Shown here in pieces: positions 1-40,430 of a DNA stretch of 56,886 nucleotides. The DNA comes from an uncultured virus (IMG/VR IMGVR_UViG_3300033066_001236). Its lineage: Duplodnaviria; Heunggongvirae; Uroviricota; Caudoviricetes. The translations under genes and the position numbers were made by a program. The notes beneath the pieces were generated by a model, which searched no databases, was not told the origin of the DNA, and saw nothing but the letters and a program-made list of their open reading frames with translations. Each line of letters opens with the position of its first letter. Positions within the stretch are counted from its first letter, which is position 1. Where the stretch lies: IMG/VR virus record IMGVR_UViG_3300033066_001236; one strand, written 5' to 3'.

Positions 1-884
1 GAGGCAGGGTACAAGGCTGTTATGGGAATATTGGGATACAGCGCTGAGAACTTCTCCTGGTTATAGGACCTTGTCCGAGCTATGTAGCCCCCGGTTATGT
101 ACTCCGGAGTTGCACCATCGCCCAATGTAATGTTCAGCCTGGTGTACTTGATAGGCTGGGCATATATCAGGTTCTGAATTATTCCGAAGATACCGATCGC
201 CATTGCACTGTTGATCGCCATTGTCTGGTCGAGATCCGCGCAACTCAGGGTGGTCTCCGCCTTCATATCCACGTAGTACTGCATATCTAGGGGTATGAAG
301 GGAATATCGACGTCCCCCGGGAGACCTCTGGGCCAGGTAAGCAGGTCACGTGCAGTGAGGGAATCTATATCGGGTTTTTCCAGATGTGAGACCACGATCT
401 GTCCGAAGTCGTTTTCATTCCCTGAGTCGATCAACATTATGTTTCGGACTCGGCCTCCTTGCTGGCTGTACATCAGTAGATTGCTCAGGATGTGACGACG
501 CGCTTCCGGAGAGTCAACACACATGATCACCACAGAGTTGTTGATGTGTCTGCTAAACGCTGCCTCCATGTTGGGTTTGGTACCCATTGCTCGGAAAGCC
601 TCGACTCTCTCGACAACAGGTATGATTGGGATGTTGAAGGCCCTGGAGTACCGTTGTGCCAACACAGTGGCCTTAGGTTTCCCCACGTCCGTTGCGATAA
701 AGTTTTGGCGCAGGAGGTTCTTTTCCTCGACGACGTCGTCGTCAACAATGGTGATTTCCGGATTCAAGATCCATGCGCAGGTTTTCAGGAACTGGGCTAG
801 CAGGGGGACCAAGCGGGAACCCGTGCCGCCACCGCCTATGATGAGGTACTTGTTGGGAATGTACGTAGAACGATAATTGATCAT
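1..884 (-). CDS. ThiF/E1-like adenylating enzyme, PRTRC-type (3' end runs off the window)
   Basis: Absent from the ORF track because it has no stop in the window. Manual translation from ATG 884: MINYRSTYIPNKYLIIGGGGTGSRL...IVDDDVVEEKNLLRQNF...GKPKA...MCVDS...LIDSGNE...LSCAD. These are the GxGGxG nucleotide-binding loop, the NLxRQ motif and a candidate catalytic Cys at 242-240. Confidence 0.9.
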   Translation of the reverse strand, partial: MINYRSTYIPNKYLIIGGGGTGSRLVPLLAQFLKTCAWILNPEITIVDDDVVEEKNLLRQNFIATDVGKPKATVLAQRYSRAFNIPIIPVVERVEAFRAMGTKPNMEAAFSRHINNSVVIMCVDSPEARRHILSNLLMYSQQGGRVRNIMLIDSGNENDFGQIVVSHLEKPDIDSLTARDLLTWPRGLPGDVDIPFIPLDMQYYVDMKAETTLSCADLDQTMAINSAMAIGIFGIIQNLIYAQPIKYTRLNITLGDGATPEYITGGYIARTRSYNQEKFSALYPNIPITALYPA

Positions 885-933
885 GGGATCCCTTGGGGTA
901 AAAAGAAAGAGAAGGAGTACACTGTACTCCTCT

Positions 934-942
934 CTTATACCG
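934..942 (-). promoter_or_regulatory. GGTATAAG promoter-like motif upstream of the ThiF gene
   Basis: Minus strand reads CGGTATAAG, followed immediately by a GGAGTAC-A-GT-GTACTCC hairpin (about 913-931). Confidence 0.6.
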
Positions 943-965
943 TAAATACGAGTTTTAACGAAAGG

Positions 966-1943
966 TTAGAAGCCGTTTGTTTGGAGTTTCATCTGGCCGT
1001 CCTCGCTCAGCATGTGATAGGCCGTCCGGATTATGTCCAGAAGTCCCTTGTCACAACCCTGCAGTTCAGGCAGGACGCTGTCTACTAACGAATAAGTATC
1101 GGCTACGGTTTTGCCGAACTCCATGAGAAACTCCTCATGAAAAGGGCTAGTATTCTCCGGAAAGGGGGAACCCAGGCGGGGCCCCACTGGATCTTGCTGT
1201 TCCTCCGGGTCGTCTTGCCCTTGTTGTGCTGCAATTACTGACGCGGCAATCGCTTCACCCAGAGTCTCCAGGTTTTCTGATTGCATATACGCCCCTCTCG
1301 CGATCACCGCAGTATCGGGTTCCGCGTCAGGATCTTGACCAACCGACTTGAGCCATGCTGTAAGCTTGGCGTCGTGCTCCTCTACTTCAGAAGGACCCAT
1401 TGGATCGATGAGATCCTGCAGCTTTTTTGCGACGTCCCGCTTTTCCGGAGCTTGCTGCGTCGTTCCGGCGGGACCTACGTTTTTTGGAGTCACCGACCCT
1501 TCGTAATTGTCTGCCATAGCTCCAGCCATATTTCCCCACACGTCTTCCATGTTTGGAAACATCGGGGCTGCCGGGCCACTGGCTCCACCCTCGCTGGTTT
1601 TGTTGGCGGCCGGAGTGCTCGGAGACCACTTAGCAGGGTTTTGGGGGGTAGCCCCTACCTGCATTCGATCCCGAAAGTACTGACCGTACTGGCTCAGGTT
1701 GGTGCCTTGATAACCCTGGTGGGTTTGCACCTCGACTTGGTCAAGCCATTCCGACGGTATGGTTACCTCCGTATTCATTTCAAAGATGTCCTTGAGGTCA
1801 ACCTTCGTCTTGTGGTCGTGCAGGTTGAATCTCATGGTCCATTCGTAGGCGTTGTCGGTGATCTTACCCACAACCCCTGAATAGTAAATCCCCGTTCTGT
1901 CGTTGTTGTCATCAGTGCCACTGAAGAAAGCGCCCATGGTGTT
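966..1943 (-). CDS. JAB/MPN+ metalloprotease (PRTRC protein A-like), exon 2
   Basis: Begins NTMGAFFSGTDDNND, completing the HSH-x-x-M-x-AFFS-x-TDD JAB motif started in exon 1. Ends in a long low-complexity tail. Confidence 0.88.
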   Translation of the reverse strand, partial: NTMGAFFSGTDDNNDRTGIYYSGVVGKITDNAYEWTMRFNLHDHKTKVDLKDIFEMNTEVTIPSEWLDQVEVQTHQGYQGTNLSQYGQYFRDRMQVGATPQNPAKWSPSTPAANKTSEGGASGPAAPMFPNMEDVWGNMAGAMADNYEGSVTPKNVGPAGTTQQAPEKRDVAKKLQDLIDPMGPSEVEEHDAKLTAWLKSVGQDPDAEPDTAVIARGAYMQSENLETLGEAIAASVIAAQQGQDDPEEQQDPVGPRLGSPFPENTSPFHEEFLMEFGKTVADTYSLVDSVLPELQGCDKGLLDIIRTAYHMLSEDGQMKLQTNGF

Positions 1944-2365
1944 CATTTAGTTATGACTAATAATTTTAAAATTAGTCCTTGCTCTACTTAAAATACTAAG
2001 GTAATATCGAGTGTCTCTTATTTAAAGGACACAACAATATGAAAGATCAACTCTCTCAAACCTTAGATTCTAATAAAGAACTTATCGTATTTTGAAAAGT
2101 TCTTGCTACTTCAAAAGCAAGATCTGACTATCTCATCATCTACAGCATGACCTGTTTAGATGTTCGGGGCTCGTGTCTCTATTATTGCCTTACCTGGCTC
2201 AAGAATTAGTCGATACACCTTCCAGCTACTTATTTGGTAGTTTGCTGGCTCGGCACGGTGTTGGCTGAAGAGGCGTTCACCGTTAGCTAGACCAAAGGTC
2301 TAACACCCATTTCTGGTTCTCCGAATTTTATATCCCTGGATTTCTCCAAGGTCGCACCACACTTA
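1944..2365 (-). mobile_element. Group I self-splicing intron (422 nt) in the JAB gene
   Basis: The 5' exon ends in U, and UCGCAU pairs with the IGS GUGCGA with U.G at the splice site. The intron ends in G (..ACUAAAUG). IGS GUGU can pair with 3' exon ACAC (P10). Core motifs: CCGUGCCGAGCC, GAAGGUGUAUCGACUA, GAGAUAGUC. Confidence 0.92.
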
Positions 2366-2980
2366 ATGCGAATGGACGTCTACAACAATGATTGCACCGG
2401 GAGGTAGAGTTTCCGGGTCGTACGTAAACGACACAGAGGCTTTACTCACCGTCTGCTTGGGGACGGAAATGTAGTAGCCCTTGTCGGGCTCCCACAGGAT
2501 CCAGGCATGGGCCTCGTAATCCTGCTTTTTCAGCTTCATGACCTGACGGAAGAACTGCACGAGTTGTTCCCAGTACGAGTACGGGATCTTGCCGGCTGGC
2601 AGGAAGTTGATCTCCTCCCGGACGGTTGTCATTCGTACGTTCTTGATCAAGTCCTTGAACTTGGCGGGGATACCCGGGATCTTGACTCGCACGTGTCGGC
2701 CGCCAATCAGCTCGACGTGCTTGTAGTACTCACCGTTGGCGATGATATACAGCTCTTTGTAGTTCGCGGCTAACGCTTCGGGAACCTGATGGGGCTCCAC
2801 GAGACAGCTCGCATACGGGGACAGGACCAGAAAGTTGACGGAGGCTTGGGCCGTAGCCCTCAGCTCAGCCAGCGGGTCTACCGGCGTTACCGTTTGCGTG
2901 GAGGAGATTATTTGATGGTTCATTGCGTTTTCAAGAGAAAGTTGGGCCGCGTTTTTTAGCTTACGGGATCGTCTACCCAT
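2366..2980 (-). CDS. JAB/MPN+ metalloprotease, exon 1
   Basis: YEAHAWILW...VPKQTVSKASV...VVDVHSH: catalytic Glu and HxH, cut off by the intron. Confidence 0.88.
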
Positions 2981-2985
2981 GATGG

Positions 2986-3840
2986 TTACCTAAATTTGGT
3001 GTAATCGAATTTCTCCTGTTGGGACAAGTAGTTGAACCAACCCGGGATATCGTAGCCTCGGATGGGGATCCCGAGGTCGTTGTTGAAAGGAGAAATGGTA
3101 ATGACGTCGTAGTAGTAAGCTAAACCTCTCAGGTTGTTGTTGAACTCCATGGGGACGATGTTACCGCCGTAGCACATCCGGTAGTCTTCGTAGAAGTTCG
3201 GATAGGGCATCTTCCAGATTTGTTCCCGATAGTCCGCTTCGTTAACTAGGCGGTCCGTGGGTAGTTGTTCAACGGGCTTGGACGTACAGAAGTACTTGAC
3301 CGAAACTACTCGCCAGAGCTTTTTGTCTCGCTTCATCACTACGGAGATAATGACGTTCGGCATGCACACGTTCTTATACACCGTTGGGGGGCCGCCATTG
3401 AGGTGCTTCATGTCGGCTTTACGTTCGGGGATGTAAATGCCAACCTGCATCTCCGTCAGGCTTTGCGCAATCATGTACGCTCCCCTGGGGAGAACCATCA
3501 TGGACATTTGGGTTTCCGTCTGAAGCTGTTGGTCCAACAACTTCTTGAAGTCCAATACGGAGATGCTCTTCCAGAGTCCTTTGATTTCTACATCGACGTG
3601 GGTAGGGTAGATACGAACGGCCTGCATGTCTACCTTATTACCCGAGGCTGATGGGCCTTTTTTCAAAGCTGCCTCTATCACCTTTTTTGTTGTGTCCGGA
3701 AGATTGTCGTACACTTCTTGGGCAACCCATCTTTCAACAGGAGGCGTCGCAACAGCTGCTTGAGCAGGGGGAGCCAAAGGAGTTTCCGAGGGCTCTACCA
3801 CAATCACGGGCTCCGTGAGGTTTTGAGCAGAATCATTCAT
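2986..3840 (-). CDS. Prokaryotic E2-like protein (Prok-E2 family D / PRTRC protein B-like)
   Basis: MPYPNFYEDYRMCYGGN resembles the PxxN-x5-C-x-G E2 active-site segment, and FNNDL follows. It lies between the Ubl and JAB genes. Confidence 0.75.
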   Translation of the reverse strand: MNDSAQNLTEPVIVVEPSETPLAPPAQAAVATPPVERWVAQEVYDNLPDTTKKVIEAALKKGPSASGNKVDMQAVRIYPTHVDVEIKGLWKSISVLDFKKLLDQQLQTETQMSMMVLPRGAYMIAQSLTEMQVGIYIPERKADMKHLNGGPPTVYKNVCMPNVIISVVMKRDKKLWRVVSVKYFCTSKPVEQLPTDRLVNEADYREQIWKMPYPNFYEDYRMCYGGNIVPMEFNNNLRGLAYYYDVITISPFNNDLGIPIRGYDIPGWFNYLSQQEKFDYTKFR

Positions 3841-3851
3841 GTTATTTAACC

Positions 3852-4121
3852 TTAAATGTAGTCGTCGTCACCGACCAGGACATAGTCGTAGTTCACAACA
3901 CTGTTTTCTACGGTTTGAAGGCCCATTACAGGGTTAGCTGCTTGTCGTGCAGGATGGGGAGTGCTGGTAAGATTGCTAAGCAACAAGTTCAGCTCGGCGA
4001 GATTCGTCGGTAGTTTCGACAGTGTCTGGCCTTGTAACAGAATGGTCAGGGCCGCGTCTGACACGCCCATCAGCCCCGATCTGAGTGAATCTAGATCTAT
4101 TTTGTACTCTAACATTTTCAT
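3852..4121 (-). CDS. Hypothetical protein; may be the frameshifted C-terminus of 3976..4779
   Basis: 89-aa ORF that overlaps the upstream ORF by 146 nt and ends just before the E2 start. Confidence 0.45.
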   Translation of the reverse strand: MKMLEYKIDLDSLRSGLMGVSDAALTILLQGQTLSKLPTNLAELNLLLSNLTSTPHPARQAANPVMGLQTVENSVVNYDYVLVGDDDYI

Positions 4122-4779
4122 CTCGGAAAAGTGCCTTACGGGAAAGTGTCTTCAGGATTTTGGTAAAGTCCGACAGGAACAACAGCCATCTGTAGGACTC
4201 GTGAGGTGGCCAGTTTCTCGACTTCGGTATTACCTCGAGATATATATACCGGTCGTCTATGCCGGGTTGATAGTTGGTACTGTGAAAGATATCCAGGTTA
4301 AGACCTAGTTGGTCCGCTCGATAGGAGAGCATTCTACGGTAACGAGCGACAACCGGATCGTTCTGTACCGACAGTCCTATCCCCATTCCGTCGTACCCTT
4401 TATAGAGGTAGGGTAGGATGAAGTTTTCGTACAGCTCGTTGGGCAGGACCGGGTCTGTTGTAGGGTTGGCATTGGCACGTTGGGCCGCAGGTTTCTCAAC
4501 CATGTGCGGGTTGTCTTTCTGAAACCCAACAACCAGAAGATCAATAAGCTTCTGTCTGGAGTGTCTCGACCGGTTGGGGTCTGTGAAGTCTAATCCCGCT
4601 TTGAAATTCCTGCTAATCAACTTGTTGTGCAACAGTCTCTCAACGGAGAAGGCGAGTAACGTGCCTACGATTAAGTCTCGCTCAAGCGAGGCTCTGGAGT
4701 TTAAGAGCGCACTGCTCAGTGTGTTGTTTACTTTTGTAACCACAAGCAAACCTTTCAAAGATAGACTAAAAAAAACCAA
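3976..4779 (-). CDS. Hypothetical protein inside the Ubl cassette
   Basis: 267-aa ORF co-oriented between Ubl and E2. The start is uncertain (TTG next to a T8 run). Confidence 0.6.
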   Translation of the reverse strand: MVFFSLSLKGLLVVTKVNNTLSSALLNSRASLERDLIVGTLLAFSVERLLHNKLISRNFKAGLDFTDPNRSRHSRQKLIDLLVVGFQKDNPHMVEKPAAQRANANPTTDPVLPNELYENFILPYLYKGYDGMGIGLSVQNDPVVARYRRMLSYRADQLGLNLDIFHSTNYQPGIDDRYIYLEVIPKSRNWPPHESYRWLLFLSDFTKILKTLSRKALFRDENVRVQNRSRFTQIGADGRVRRGPDHSVTRPDTVETTDESRRAELVA

Positions 4780-19652: not shown

Positions 19653-20289
19653 TACGAAAGTTAGTCGACTCAGGGGGCGACCCCTGATGAATAAAAGTGG
19701 CTCAAACGGCGAAAGCGTGAAAACGTAACACCGTACCAAAACCGACAGGCAACTTCGGCGACGGTCTAGAGACTTATAGGGTGTCTACCCCAAGTTCAAC
19801 AAAACTTGGCACGACATCACTAGGATGGAAGAAATCGATTTCGAAAGCATGTTTAGCCTTTGTCTGGGCCTCAGAGTACTTTCCGTTTCGCACGGTAAGC
19901 CCCTTATAACGCTCAGTCAGCAACAACATGCGTCGCTTCTTTTCGGGCTCTTGTATGTAGGGTAAAAGCTTACTGATAGCAGTCAATGCTTTGTCGTTAG
20001 CGATTTTCCAACTATACGATTGTTTGTGGTGGGCTTTGTATACCTTATGAGTACTTATGTGACCTCCAAAAGTCGTCACGTAGAGCTCTAACAGGTTAAG
20101 GGACGTGCTAGACATAGAAAGAACCGGGTAACGAAACATTAAGTTGTTCGCCCGGGTACACATCGTCACCGTTCCCTCACCATCAAACAGCCCTGCTAAA
20201 TAAGCTAATCGTAATTGTTCTTCCATAAATGCCACTCTCTCATGGTTGAGATATTACCATGAGATGAAGGAATAGTCCACAGAAGTGTG
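19653..20289 (+). mobile_element. Group I intron (637 nt) in the tmRNA T-loop
   Basis: Exon UCGAU pairs with intron GUCGA (U.G splice pair). Terminal G present. Core motifs: AAACGGCGAAAGC, ACACCGUACCAAA, GGUCUAGAGACU, GAAUAGUCC. Removal restores the 7-nt loop TTCGATT. Confidence 0.88.
19774..20226 (-). CDS. Single-motif LAGLIDADG homing endonuclease, antisense inside the tmRNA intron
   Basis: AYLAGLFDGEG...FGGHI...SYSWKI...KLLPYIQEPEK. ATG at 20226, or GTG at 20235. Confidence 0.9.
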   Translation of the reverse strand: MEEQLRLAYLAGLFDGEGTVTMCTRANNLMFRYPVLSMSSTSLNLLELYVTTFGGHISTHKVYKAHHKQSYSWKIANDKALTAISKLLPYIQEPEKKRRMLLLTERYKGLTVRNGKYSEAQTKAKHAFEIDFFHPSDVVPSFVELGVDTL

Positions 20290-20898
20290 TCCCGCCAGCT
20301 CCACCATGGGGGGCTGCCAGGTTTCGACGTGGAATAAGTACGCTTTGAAAGCGATCCGGCAGACGAACGCCGTAAATGTAGTAAAACCACAAATGCCAAC
20401 GATGAGTTTGCATACGCCCGCCGCGCCGCCTAAAAACGGCTGCGGCACCTGACTAGACTCTTCGGGGTTTAGTTAGTGCGGAGTGTTTCTGGTACGGTTA
20501 GCTTGGCAACAGAAGCCCTAACGGGTAAACCGTACTACCAAATTTTGGCAACCTGCGAAGCAGTCCGGAGAAGAATACGGACAACCCCTGACGACGGGGG
20601 ACGGAGCAAATTCGTCGTTGACTGACTGGGGGTTCGTACGAGACCGACACCAAGCGGCTTCTCAAGCCCCTAAACGCCGGCTCAGCGGGTACAACCACTG
20701 ACACACCGGCCTCTGAGGGCCTCAGTTCATTCCTTATTATGAGACCGAGGAGTTCCGGCGGGTATACGTCATCTTAAATCAATGATGTGTCTCTGCCTGT
20801 ACCCCTTCGCAGGACCTGCCTATCTCTGGGCCGTTCGGCCCGACCGCTATGGGTGTGAGCGGTTCAATATCACACCCAAATCCATCGAAGGAATCTTC

Positions 20899-37672: not shown

Positions 37673-37961
37673 GTGTCCTTAGCTCAGTTGGATAGAGCAA
37701 CAGCCTTCTGAAATTTCGGGCCTCTATGAGGAAACTTGTAGAGTGTAACTGGTCAAACTCAGGGAAGCCTAAGTGGTCCGCATTCTAACGAATGTCCATA
37801 AGGTAATCCTGAGCCAAGCCCGGGTAAAACCGGGAAGGTGCAGAGACTTGACGGCCAGGATCTAACGCGAAAGCCATGATCAAGAGAAAGTCCAAGGAGT
37901 GGCGAAAGTCACACAAACTTGAAGCTGTGGGTCGGGGGTTCGAATCCCTCAGGACACGCCA
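37673..37961 (+). tRNA. tRNA-Arg(UCU), intron-containing (exons 37673-37709 and 37922-37961)
   Basis: Spliced anticodon arm ACAGC-CTTCT|AA-GCTGT; GTGTCCT/AGGACAC acceptor; CCA. Confidence 0.93.
37710..37921 (+). mobile_element. Compact group I intron (212 nt) after anticodon position 36
   Basis: AAACUCAGGGAAGCCUAA, AAUCCUGAGCCAAGC, GAAGGUGCAGAGACU, GAGAAAGUCC, terminal G. Confidence 0.93.
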
Positions 37962-39456: not shown

Positions 39457-39599
39457 GGCTAAAGCCCAGAAGAGGTCTAGGGCCTCTTTTTAGCTCAATA
39501 CGCCAGAACGTTTGTGGTATAAGATTATTGAGAAGATAACTTGTTTCGGCGAGGATCTGATCGTGGGACTATAGCTCAATGGTAGAGCGGAGAACTCAT

Positions 39600-40364
39600 C
39601 AACCGTTGCATCTTGGTTCGAACTGTAGTAAAATACAGTTTAATCAGGAGAATGCGGATGTCAACTAAAAACAGGCGAGTTGTTAACGGGTATGTTTTGC
39701 TTTACAGGCCGGACCATTTCAATTGTTTCTCTTCCTCCGACTGGAAGGGATACGTGTATGAGCATCGGTATGTTATGGAGCAACACTTAGGTAGAGCTCT
39801 AAGTTCCACAGAACTAGTGCATCACTTAGATTGCGACAAAACAAACAACCAGTTGAGTAACTTGATTGTTCTGTCCCGAGCTGACCACGTCAAGCTGCAC
39901 GGATGGATAGACAATGGTGCCCCTATATGCGAAAGCTATAGGGAGAACGGGGTGAATTCAGGGAAAGCTAACCCTTCAGGTAGAGTTTGTCAAGTGTGCG
40001 AAGGTAGTCTATCTTCAACTCAAAAACAGACTTGTAGTAGAACTTGTCATAACCAACATCTGGCCCGCGTTAGCAGAAAAGTAGAACGACCTTCGTTCGA
40101 ACAACTGACTGAAGACTACAAAAACTTATCGATCGTCAAGATTGGTAAAAAATACGGAGTCTCTGACAACGCAGTCAGGAAGTGGATGGCGGGTTACCTC
40201 AAAGGCATGTCAACCCTGAGCCAAGCCGATGATACATCGTCGGAAGGTGCAGAGACTAGTGGAGGGGTTCAGTCCCCTTAATAACCACATTAGCGCCCCG
40301 GTCCCTAACGTAAAGTCGAGGGATGTGAGATAGTCCAGGGAGTACAGAAATGTACACAAACCGG
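39600..40364 (+). mobile_element. Group I intron (765 nt) with HNH homing endonuclease
   Basis: IGS GUG (39916-18) lies before P2 CCCUAUA/UAUAGGG. Core: GAAUUCAGGGAAAGC, AACCCUGAGCCAAGC, GAAGGUGCAGAGACU, GAGAUAGUCC. Terminal G. Confidence 0.92.
39658..40281 (+). CDS. Intron-encoded HNH homing endonuclease with C-terminal zinc finger/HTH
   Basis: YVYEHRYVME...VHHLDCDKTNN..SNL...HVKLH; CQVC..CSRTC; IGKKYGVSDNAVRKW. Confidence 0.9.
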   Translation: MSTKNRRVVNGYVLLYRPDHFNCFSSSDWKGYVYEHRYVMEQHLGRALSSTELVHHLDCDKTNNQLSNLIVLSRADHVKLHGWIDNGAPICESYRENGVNSGKANPSGRVCQVCEGSLSSTQKQTCSRTCHNQHLARVSRKVERPSFEQLTEDYKNLSIVKIGKKYGVSDNAVRKWMAGYLKGMSTLSQADDTSSEGAETSGGVQSP

Positions 40365-40430
40365 AATTCTTTGGTTGCAGGTTCGAATCCTGCTGGTCCC
40401 ACCACACATTTTCAACTTCGGAGAATCACG

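Follow-up and report, generated by a model that had tools for sequence, protein, structure and literature searches.

How can a phage gene for a JAB peptidase be broken in two within its metal-binding motif and still be conserved on both sides of the break? The question is raised by a stretch of 56,886 nucleotides (nt) from an uncultured virus of the Caudoviricetes, here called the window, which represents the final 56.9 kb of a 118,886-bp IMG/VR virus record (IMGVR_UViG_3300033066_001236; CheckV 67%). In this region gene callers give two "hypothetical" open reading frames (ORFs) of 205 and 326 amino acids (aa), with the result that a cassette resembling the ubiquitin-like (Ubl) pathways seems to want its JAB enzyme. 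The analysis described here indicates that the 422 nt between the two frames (1944-2365) are a genuine group I intron, named intron A, which lies between the HxH and the S-xx-D of the JAB motif and is predicted to be self-splicing; we assign to this reading a probability of roughly nine in ten. Its support comes from the boundaries of the insert, from the P1, P10 and P7 elements and the terminal G found in it, from its membership in an intron family with covarying helices, from uninterrupted homologues of the gene and from an exon-exon joint present in RNA libraries.

A JAMM motif divided between two reading frames

The interrupted gene is composed of three parts, listed in the order of transcription:

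2366..2980, minus strand: exon 1 of the JAB (PRTRC_A-like) gene; 205 codons, ending VVDVHSH, with the conserved Glu (EAHAW) and the HxH of JAMM
1944..2365, minus strand: probable group I intron A; 422 nt, recognized from sequence, Rfam and RNA-library unitigs
966..1943, minus strand: exon 2 of the JAB gene; 325 codons plus stop, supplying the S and D of JAMM

Exon 1 closes with GTA GAC GTC CAT TCG CAT (VDVHSH) and is directly followed by a TAA at 2365-2363, so that the stop codon placed immediately after HSH in the unspliced RNA by the initial annotation of this DNA is indeed there. Exon 2 opens at 1943 with AAC ACC ATG GGC GCT TTC (NTMG..., that is NTMGAFFSGTDD), while the ATG at 1946..1944, called as the start of the exon-2 ORF, corresponds to the final three bases of the intron. 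Removal of the 422 nt at 1944-2365 generates H-S-H-NTMGAFF-S-GT-D, hence the spacing H-x-H-x7-S-x2-D, which in combination with a Glu we take to be the JAMM/JAB metallopeptidase motif; its Ser and Asp are presumably active-site residues of the peptidase family. The spliced frame, computed by script, has 530 codons. The union of the two ORFs at VDVHSH|NTMGAFFSGTDD, which had been proposed from the sequence, is confirmed to the base.

The two exons, scanned separately, both match the NCBIfam profile PRTRC_A (TIGR03735), exon 1 at profile positions 64-143 (E 1.6e-5, 24.5 bits) and exon 2 at positions 145-189 (E 1.2e-6, 28.2 bits); these adjoining positions in one profile are among the signs that the observation is not a product of chance. 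The curated cut-off of PRTRC_A, 101.8 bits, is missed by both halves and also by the homologue P0004 (72.6), and Pfam and PHROGs gave nothing on either half of the JAB gene. Full-length homologues carry PF14464 (Prok-JAB) in precomputed annotation and are listed in part as "PRTRC genetic system protein A".

Homologues free of the intron and reading HSHNTM, whose search had been suggested as a check, were found. All of the full-length homologues (10/10) are uninterrupted across the joint, where they read HSHNTMGAF (alignment A1), and the columns of the Glu (E156), His, Ser and Asp are nearly invariant. Two phage proteins are encoded by single annotated coding sequences (CDSs), namely gp247c of Salmonella phage Arash, which reads LDIHSHNTMGAFFSGTDE, and D69_0303 of a Vibrio phage, which reads CDIHSHNNMSAFFSGTDN. 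Alignment A1 was too diverse for pattern search and alignment A6 was used instead. The motif is also uninterrupted in 39/39 further viral-contig loci, each with one tblastn match running through it, in line with the expectation that the insertion site is conserved; this set is biased towards uninterrupted genes, as one of the two search patterns demanded an intact HSHNTM. Nine of the 39 were checked upstream, and no stop was present in the 50 codons before the motif.

The window protein itself is more isolated. Comparison of the exon-1 protein with viral contigs revealed no close relative, and a near-identical uninterrupted protein of about 530 aa was absent from 15 billion proteins, the best full-length match being 36-37% identical; the two protein clusters to which the halves belong likewise consist of such pieces (14/14 members). 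A protein of 239 aa from ENA (P0012) shares 52% identity with exon 2; as called, it begins with MGAFYSGTDD and has no N-terminal half, and it may come from another lineage that is split at or near the same motif. A search for its contig gave only L135, an intact, different relative.

One close relative was identified in the metagenome collection, the locus L006, whose exon-1 product is 99% identical by tblastn. Its protein differs from the spliced protein of the window at 16/530 residues (about 97% identity), and the exon bases differ at 89/1593 (5.6%). At the position of intron A (site A) L006 reads VDVHSHNTMG without a break, with HSH|N intact, and relatives of this type demonstrate a presence/absence polymorphism of intron A; the gene is interrupted 12 nt downstream by another intron, intron B, described below. 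Eight differences between the two alleles, all of them synonymous, are found within -13..+23 of site A and are flanked by 56 and 44 nt free of differences.

Anatomy and family of the insert

The elements recognized in intron A, all on the minus strand, are the following, with intron positions counted from its 5' end:

2352..2371: P1; exon UCGCAU (2371..2366), an 8-nt loop and the guide GUGCGA (2357..2352; intron positions 9-14)
1939..1942: P10; exon-2 ACAC (+2..+5) with intron GUGU (2362..2359; intron positions 4-7), four pairs, by eye
2102..2325: catalytic core from P3 to P9, based on the helix list and covariation
Intron positions 15-20/27-32: P2
Intron positions 41-45/199-203: P3
Intron positions 50-59 and 62-80: two extra hairpins
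Intron positions 83-88/106-111: P4
Intron positions 112-149: P6/P6a
Intron positions 155-159/236-240: P7, GACUA/UAGUC
Intron positions 161-164/186-189: P7.1
Intron positions 204-229: P8
Intron positions 245-264: P9
2126..2221 (intron positions 145-240): two-motif signature AAGGUGUAUCGACUA ... GAUGAUGAGAUAGUC, containing both P7 strands with J6/7 and J8/7
1944..2076 (intron positions 290-422): AT-rich 3' extension, 133 nt, GC 0.27, with a fold predicted by minimum free energy (MFE)

The 5' end of the intron is UAAGUGUGGUGCGA and the 3' end is CUAAAUG, the final base being a G. P1 consists of six pairs, of which the last is the U.G wobble at the 5' splice site; the Rfam alignment also places P1 at this position. 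The P1 helix (UCGCAU/GUGCGA), P10, the P7 motifs and the terminal G that had been claimed initially are all seen in the sequence. The distance from P7 to the 3' strand of P3, between 155-159 and 199-203, is 39 nt. Subgroup IA is characterized by an additional helix or two (P7.1/P7.2) in this interval, and the presence of P7.1 suggests that intron A is of a phage IA-like type.

The ORF list of 1944-2365 contains no sense-strand ORF of at least 30 aa, the sole ORF being one of 31 aa on the opposite strand, and no homing endonuclease encoded by intron A is found in it. The GC content falls from 0.54-0.55 in the exons to 0.44 in the intron core and 0.27 in the 3' extension; the MFE fold of the whole insert has -138.2 kcal/mol, with z = -6.2 against shuffled sequences. 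No look-alike of the 3' extension was found in the record itself or in any fetched locus.

The Rfam model RF00028 (Intron_gpI) matches intron A at 2375..2103 with 24.9 bits, the E-value being 4.8e-4 in a 901-nt scan and 1.5e-5 in a search of the record itself, and the alignment models P1, P2, P3, P6, P8 and P9. The covariance-model search foreseen as a check of the group I assignment thus returned a significant match, but one that lies below the gathering score of 50 bits. As the curated threshold is failed, membership in group I rests on evidence at the level of the family.

Such evidence is available from several sources. BLAST of intron A against phage records matched 28 records, in all cases over the core; these comprise 22 records of Flavobacterium phages, two of Bacillus phage SP-15, three Staphylococcus phages and Vibrio phage HNL01. 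In the matched records that were opened, the match falls in a gap between gene pieces: in SP-15 (L008 1455-1709) it occupies an unannotated gap after a CDS annotated as "RecA", followed by a CDS annotated as hypothetical, and in Staphylococcus phage PMBT8 (L009 424-1658) a core of the same intron family is located in the unannotated gap between two "tape-measure" CDSs, tape-measure genes being the setting of the Staphylococcus phage cores. The nearest cores overall are those of L063 (78% over 144 nt) and L036, both in other genes with tape-measure-like exons, indicating that this ribozyme lineage is not confined to JAB genes; neither of them has the 3' extension of intron A.

The two-motif signature, derived from the BLAST alignments, was found in 122 fetched stretches, with an estimate of about 400 in IMG/VR, and it occurs once in the window's own record. 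When 20 signature loci were compared with RF00028, 17 matched at E <= 0.01, 13 of these with more than 50 bits, and 3 gave no match; since 13/20 pass the Rfam cut-off, the signature marks bona fide group I introns. Among the IMG/VR loci, L014 (985 nt) has three RF00028 matches (91.9, 64.3 and 43.3 bits) within less than 1 kb on one strand, which represent closely packed introns.

Covariation was evaluated on an alignment of 18 cores (A5), limited to P6, P6a, P7, P7.1 and P8. In this alignment 93.1% of the cells are paired, versus 31-38% after displacement of the partners by 1-3 columns; changes on both sides of a pair amount to 66 cells versus 6-18 in the displaced controls, and the covariation score was reached by 0/500 shuffles. 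The helices that covary are P6a, P7.1 and P8; in P7.1 each of the 4 pairs varies on both strands, and 77.8% of its cells are paired. MAFFT did not keep P9 or the 5' strands of P3 and P4 in register; these helices were excluded from the formal count, P3 and P4 being judged by anchored extraction and P9 by eye only. Intron A, SP-15, L013, L042 and L110 have in common two extra hairpins between P3 and P4, with different letters. In this sub-class P3 covaries in 5/5 members (UUCGG/CCGAA, CCUCG/CGAGG, GUUGG/CCAAC, CGUGG/CCACG), P4 pairs in 5/5, and P3, P4 and both extra hairpins covary. Taken as a family, these data also reveal that the single group I model of Rfam misses part of a large group of phage introns, as intron A obtains 24.9 bits and SP-15 and Flavobacterium phage FpV21 no match at E <= 0.01; introns in phage metagenomes are therefore under-annotated.

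The exon-exon joint and the competing explanations

The window stretch occurs in 20 public runs, 4 of which are metatranscriptomic libraries of one study; these four were read as Logan contigs. In 3/4 RNA runs (X6, X7 and X8) a 60-nt unitig joins 1943|2366, skipping exactly 422 bases and having no mismatch to the window flanks. The depth of this unitig is 21.7, 14.6 and 24.3 in X6, X7 and X8, and that of the intron-bearing 482-nt unitig is 40.1, 29.5 and 17.4, respectively. At each of the 8 variable positions close to the site the joint has the letters of the window, and consequently it does not derive from the L006 type. The contig on the exon-1 side is 1.3 to 1.8 times deeper than that on the exon-2 side in the same three runs, which, depth being a mean per contig, is a weak hint of RNA rather than DNA. 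The 1943|2366 joint is the ligated-exon sequence predicted by the intron model, and splicing is probably its source.

According to the mechanism proposed, the guide sequence would pair with the exon UCGCAU after transcription; free guanosine bound at P7 would then attack after the U of the P1 U.G pair, P10 would align exon 2 for ligation, and the 530-aa JAB would be translated from the ligated exons. Unspliced RNA would instead stop at the UAA after HSH, giving a 205-aa fragment devoid of the Ser and Asp of JAMM, and for this reason an active peptidase would depend on splicing. Both self-splicing and the dependence of the peptidase on it are predictions made from the sequence.

The most serious alternative concerns only the origin of the joint, which could be DNA of a co-occurring phage variant lacking the intron, carried over into the libraries as a result of a presence/absence polymorphism, the insert still being a group I intron. 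Indeed, RNA libraries can hold DNA, the exon-carrying contigs are 4.4-5.5 kb long and span genes on both strands, and the fourth RNA run, X3, is without the joint. Furthermore, the depths of the intron-bearing and joined unitigs together are close to that of the exon-2 unitig (61.8 vs 65.7; 41.7 vs 46.2), and these sums fit two DNA variants as well as they fit pre-mRNA and mRNA. Eight DNA runs (X11-X18) contain 0.59-0.63 of the sampled words, a share near the value expected from loss of the 422 nt; this fits either more single-nucleotide polymorphisms or a missing intron, and is evidence neither way. However, the intron-less variant would have to encode the uninterrupted protein of about 530 aa of which no near-identical copy exists among the 15 billion proteins, and an intron-less variant of L006 type is ruled out by the window-type flanks at the 8 variable positions. 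Moreover, exon-1 ORFs ending VHSH are found in 13 contig records (P0047, P0048, P0049, P0050 and P0052) and those ending VHSHNTMGE in 14 (P0046 and P0051); in each of these 27 records from public assemblies the near-identical exon-1 ORF runs into intron A or intron B, and none of them lacks an intron. The greater depth on the exon-1 side adds its weak hint of RNA. Altogether, a DNA origin of the joint appears rather unlikely, while retaining some weight.

Several observations weigh against placing the insert among the group I introns. With 24.9 bits it reaches half of the Rfam gathering score, and the window-wide gathering scan gave no match at the site of intron A; the relatives FpV21 (L007) and SP-15 (L008) have no Rfam match at E <= 0.01, though they share the core by alignment. 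P7 and P6 do not vary in A5 and contribute no covariation; for P7 this follows from the search pattern, which required it. The helices of intron A, P1 and P10 included, were assigned by eye and script, and the 133-nt 3' extension, which separates the core from the 3' splice site, is without counterpart in the relatives. As to the RNA evidence, it consists of assembled contigs from one study, such libraries can hold DNA, and strand and ends are not shown by contigs. X3 contains the intron-bearing form only; contigs drop rare variants, so the missing joint in this run is no evidence of absence.

Some of these points would also be expected if the locus were a pseudogene or a true split gene, its insert being a dead, non-splicing remnant or an unrelated insertion and its frames either non-functional or separately translated. 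The lack of an endonuclease ORF in the insert, the Rfam score below threshold, the AT-rich extension of 133 nt between core and 3' splice site and the ATG that happens to precede exon 2 are all compatible with it. Against this, the exact 1943|2366 joint is present in sequence libraries, and the exons are open and conserved between alleles, with 89 nt differences resulting in only 16 amino-acid changes in 530 codons; 8/8 differences near the site are synonymous, and the exon letters fit the intron's own guide. In addition, a ribosome-binding site of AGGAG type is not apparent in the sequence before the exon-2 ATG, and the core helices are intact and match those of covarying relatives. A pseudogene or split gene is thus very improbable. 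Finally, the mere fact that a gene is interrupted would also suit a group II intron, an intein, a translational bypass element or a transposon, all of which can be practically dismissed, given that 422 nt are far too short for a group II intron, that stop codons in the reading frame of the insert speak against an intein, that the insert is about 8 times the 50-nt bypass given for T4 gene 60, that terminal repeats or a target duplication were not seen at the insert ends, and that the sole RNA-family match at the site, with aligned helices, is RF00028.

Neighbouring introns, surrounding genes and comparison with known systems

The genuine group I intron favoured here is not the only one in this portion of a JAB gene, as two others were identified in other loci:

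L006 1526-2634: group I intron B; 1109 nt, between GGT and GCA (NTMG|AFF), 12 nt downstream of site A
L007 1389-2409: FpV21 group I intron; 1021 nt, exon 1 ending DWYVGH (1388), exon 2 starting IHSHNTMQVFFSGTD

Intron B encodes a 304-aa LAGLIDADG protein (PF14528 2e-8; phrog_4645 1.9e-46); it obtains 46.6 bits with RF00028, and the intron-A signature is missing from it. The preceding exon ends in U and the intron ends in G, and a candidate guide, GCCCAU (L006 2383-2388), would pair with the exon AUGGGU by eye. The exon letters follow the resident intron at both sites: at site A the window has UCGCAU| and L006 has UCUCAC, and at site B L006 has AUGGGU| and the window AUGGGC. Among the exon-1 ORFs, P0050 and P0051 have the same N-terminal variants and different intron types, implying either that the introns moved between backgrounds or that the backgrounds recombined.

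In Flavobacterium phage FpV21 (L007, KT876726.1; 1059-3105), one of 22 such records, a gene with the JAB motif is split at GH|IHSHNTM, a site that motif alignment places 12 nt upstream of site A. The core of its intron is 74% identical to that of intron A over 104-108 nt (E 4e-8); P1 (GGUCAU/GUGACC), P10 (AUACA/UGUAU) and a final G can be recognized by eye, and a LAGLIDADG ORF is located on the opposite strand (PF00961, 3e-10). The exon joint is supported by the intron-less relatives L167 and L169, which read KIGHIHSHNTM. The FpV21 JAB protein resembles that of the window only around the motif. In the public record, the FpV21 gene is annotated as separate hypothetical proteins.

All three introns are thus found in the same JAMM stretch, at sites 12 nt apart each; in every case the last base of the exon is U and that of the intron G, and the P1 of FpV21 is similar to that of intron A in its CAU|...GUG guide. 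As intron A has no endonuclease gene, it would have spread by recombination in co-infection or through an endonuclease acting in trans. LAGLIDADG endonucleases recognize targets of about 20 bp; the target of the intron B endonuclease would span its own insertion site and would be broken by intron A, 12 nt away. We hypothesize that introns A and B exclude each other, as alternative occupants of one homing region. A broader and more doubtful proposal is that the 36-nt JAMM-coding stretch might be a homing region for which three group I introns, inserted 12 nt apart in three phage lineages, compete; intron A could then serve as an immunity allele against the intron B endonuclease in a balanced two-intron polymorphism, and the Ubl pathway could depend on the folding of a ribozyme. 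In this view the likeness of the FpV21 core to that of intron A would hint that the intron lineage tracks JAB genes across very distant phages.

The genes that surround the interrupted JAB gene in the window are:

3..884, minus strand: ThiF/E1-like (PRTRC_ThiF-like) gene, directly downstream of the JAB gene and running off the window
2986..3840, minus strand: gene of 284 aa upstream of the JAB gene; same order in L006
5173-6834: large terminase gene

The ThiF/E1-like product matches Pfam PF00899 (9.3e-15) and TIGR03736 (2.2e-23, under the NCBIfam cut-off), and the order JAB-ThiF is the same in L006 as in the window; this adjoining gene and the PRTRC_A match bear out the Ubl-pathway setting that had been attributed to the locus. 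The 284-aa protein has a very weak Pfam match to Prok-E2_D (E 0.054, under the cut-off) and is a possible candidate for an E2-like partner. Upstream of the cassette, two overlapping minus-strand ORFs, 3852-4121 (89 aa) and 3976-4779 (267 aa), have no family match, the former being a candidate ubiquitin-like tag. Megablast of 900-3900 against phage records gave no match.

Other introns and RNA genes were observed elsewhere in the window. A gene for a transfer RNA (tRNA), tRNA-Arg(UCU), found by ARAGORN with introns allowed at 37673-37961 on the plus strand, contains on the 3' side of its anticodon a group I intron of 212 nt at 37710-37921, matched by Rfam with 66.5 bits at 37698-37914. A second tRNA gene, at 39565-40404 on the same strand, is interrupted at about 39603-40367 by another group I intron (about 760 nt; Rfam 63.4 bits at 39899-40357), within which an HNH endonuclease ORF occupies 39613-40281 (phrog_15471, 4.7e-32); ARAGORN parsed this gene as tRNA-Pro(CGG), and a 5' exon ending in U with an intron ending in G would give the anticodon CAU (Met or Ile2). 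A permuted transfer-messenger RNA (tmRNA) is encoded at 20250-20433, plus strand (Rfam RF04321, 69.2 bits), and the 18 tRNA genes reported by ARAGORN within 19401-47956 are all on the plus strand like the tmRNA.

Group I introns inserted at active-site motifs of phage genes are textbook cases, and intron A has much in common with the phage IA introns (T4 td, nrdB and nrdD; the SPO1-type DNA polymerase; Twort; Bastillevirinae), namely a protein-coding phage gene as host, a conserved active-site motif as target, the U.G pair and the terminal G. It is also like them in the extra helix P7.1 and in the P7 letters (AACGACUA...AUAGUC), and a likeness to T4 td is presumed. Differently from them, its host gene codes for a JAB/PRTRC_A-like peptidase of a Ubl-like cassette and not for a protein of DNA metabolism, structure or lysis; moreover, it has no endonuclease ORF, two extra covarying P3-P4 hairpins, the 133-nt 3' extension and the Rfam score of 24.9 bits. 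In the Bastillevirinae, models for IA2 and IA3 are reported to give 55/72 matches (PMC11878797), and a term search of this article returned 0 occurrences of "JAB", "ubiquitin" and "ThiF". The initial statement on the lack of known cases in genes of the Ubl pathway agrees with our literature searches, which gave no report of introns in JAB, JAMM or PRTRC genes; it does not extend to the sequence records, as this motif is also interrupted by introns in L006 and in the 22 records of Flavobacterium phages.

The cassette itself can be compared with the PRTRC system (TIGR03735 and TIGR03736), as the two halves of the window gene match PRTRC_A and the downstream gene PRTRC_ThiF; however, the JAB protein of the window has 530 aa, with a long C-terminal extension relative to the 192 positions of the profile, and is encoded in a phage, next to a terminase gene.

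Closely spaced elements in a single gene have been described in other systems. In the Bacillus cereus group, nrdE is reported to have group I introns at three sites of one gene (PMC2248736), neighbouring inteins are described as interfering with each other's homing (PMC10643990), and an intron endonuclease is reported to act in phage competition (PMC11620839). Closely spaced sites within a conserved motif are found both in those systems and here; at the present locus, in contrast, the elements are alternative alleles (13 vs 14 records), one of which is without endonuclease. Introns A and B may interfere with each other, and the natural pair of phages, with a JAB protein about 97% identical and a different intron in the JAMM region, provides a ready system for studying competition and exclusion between introns. 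Intron A represents a familiar type of mobile element in a new host gene; it adds the Ubl pathway to the targets described for phage group I introns, together with a two-intron polymorphism and a third site in another lineage.

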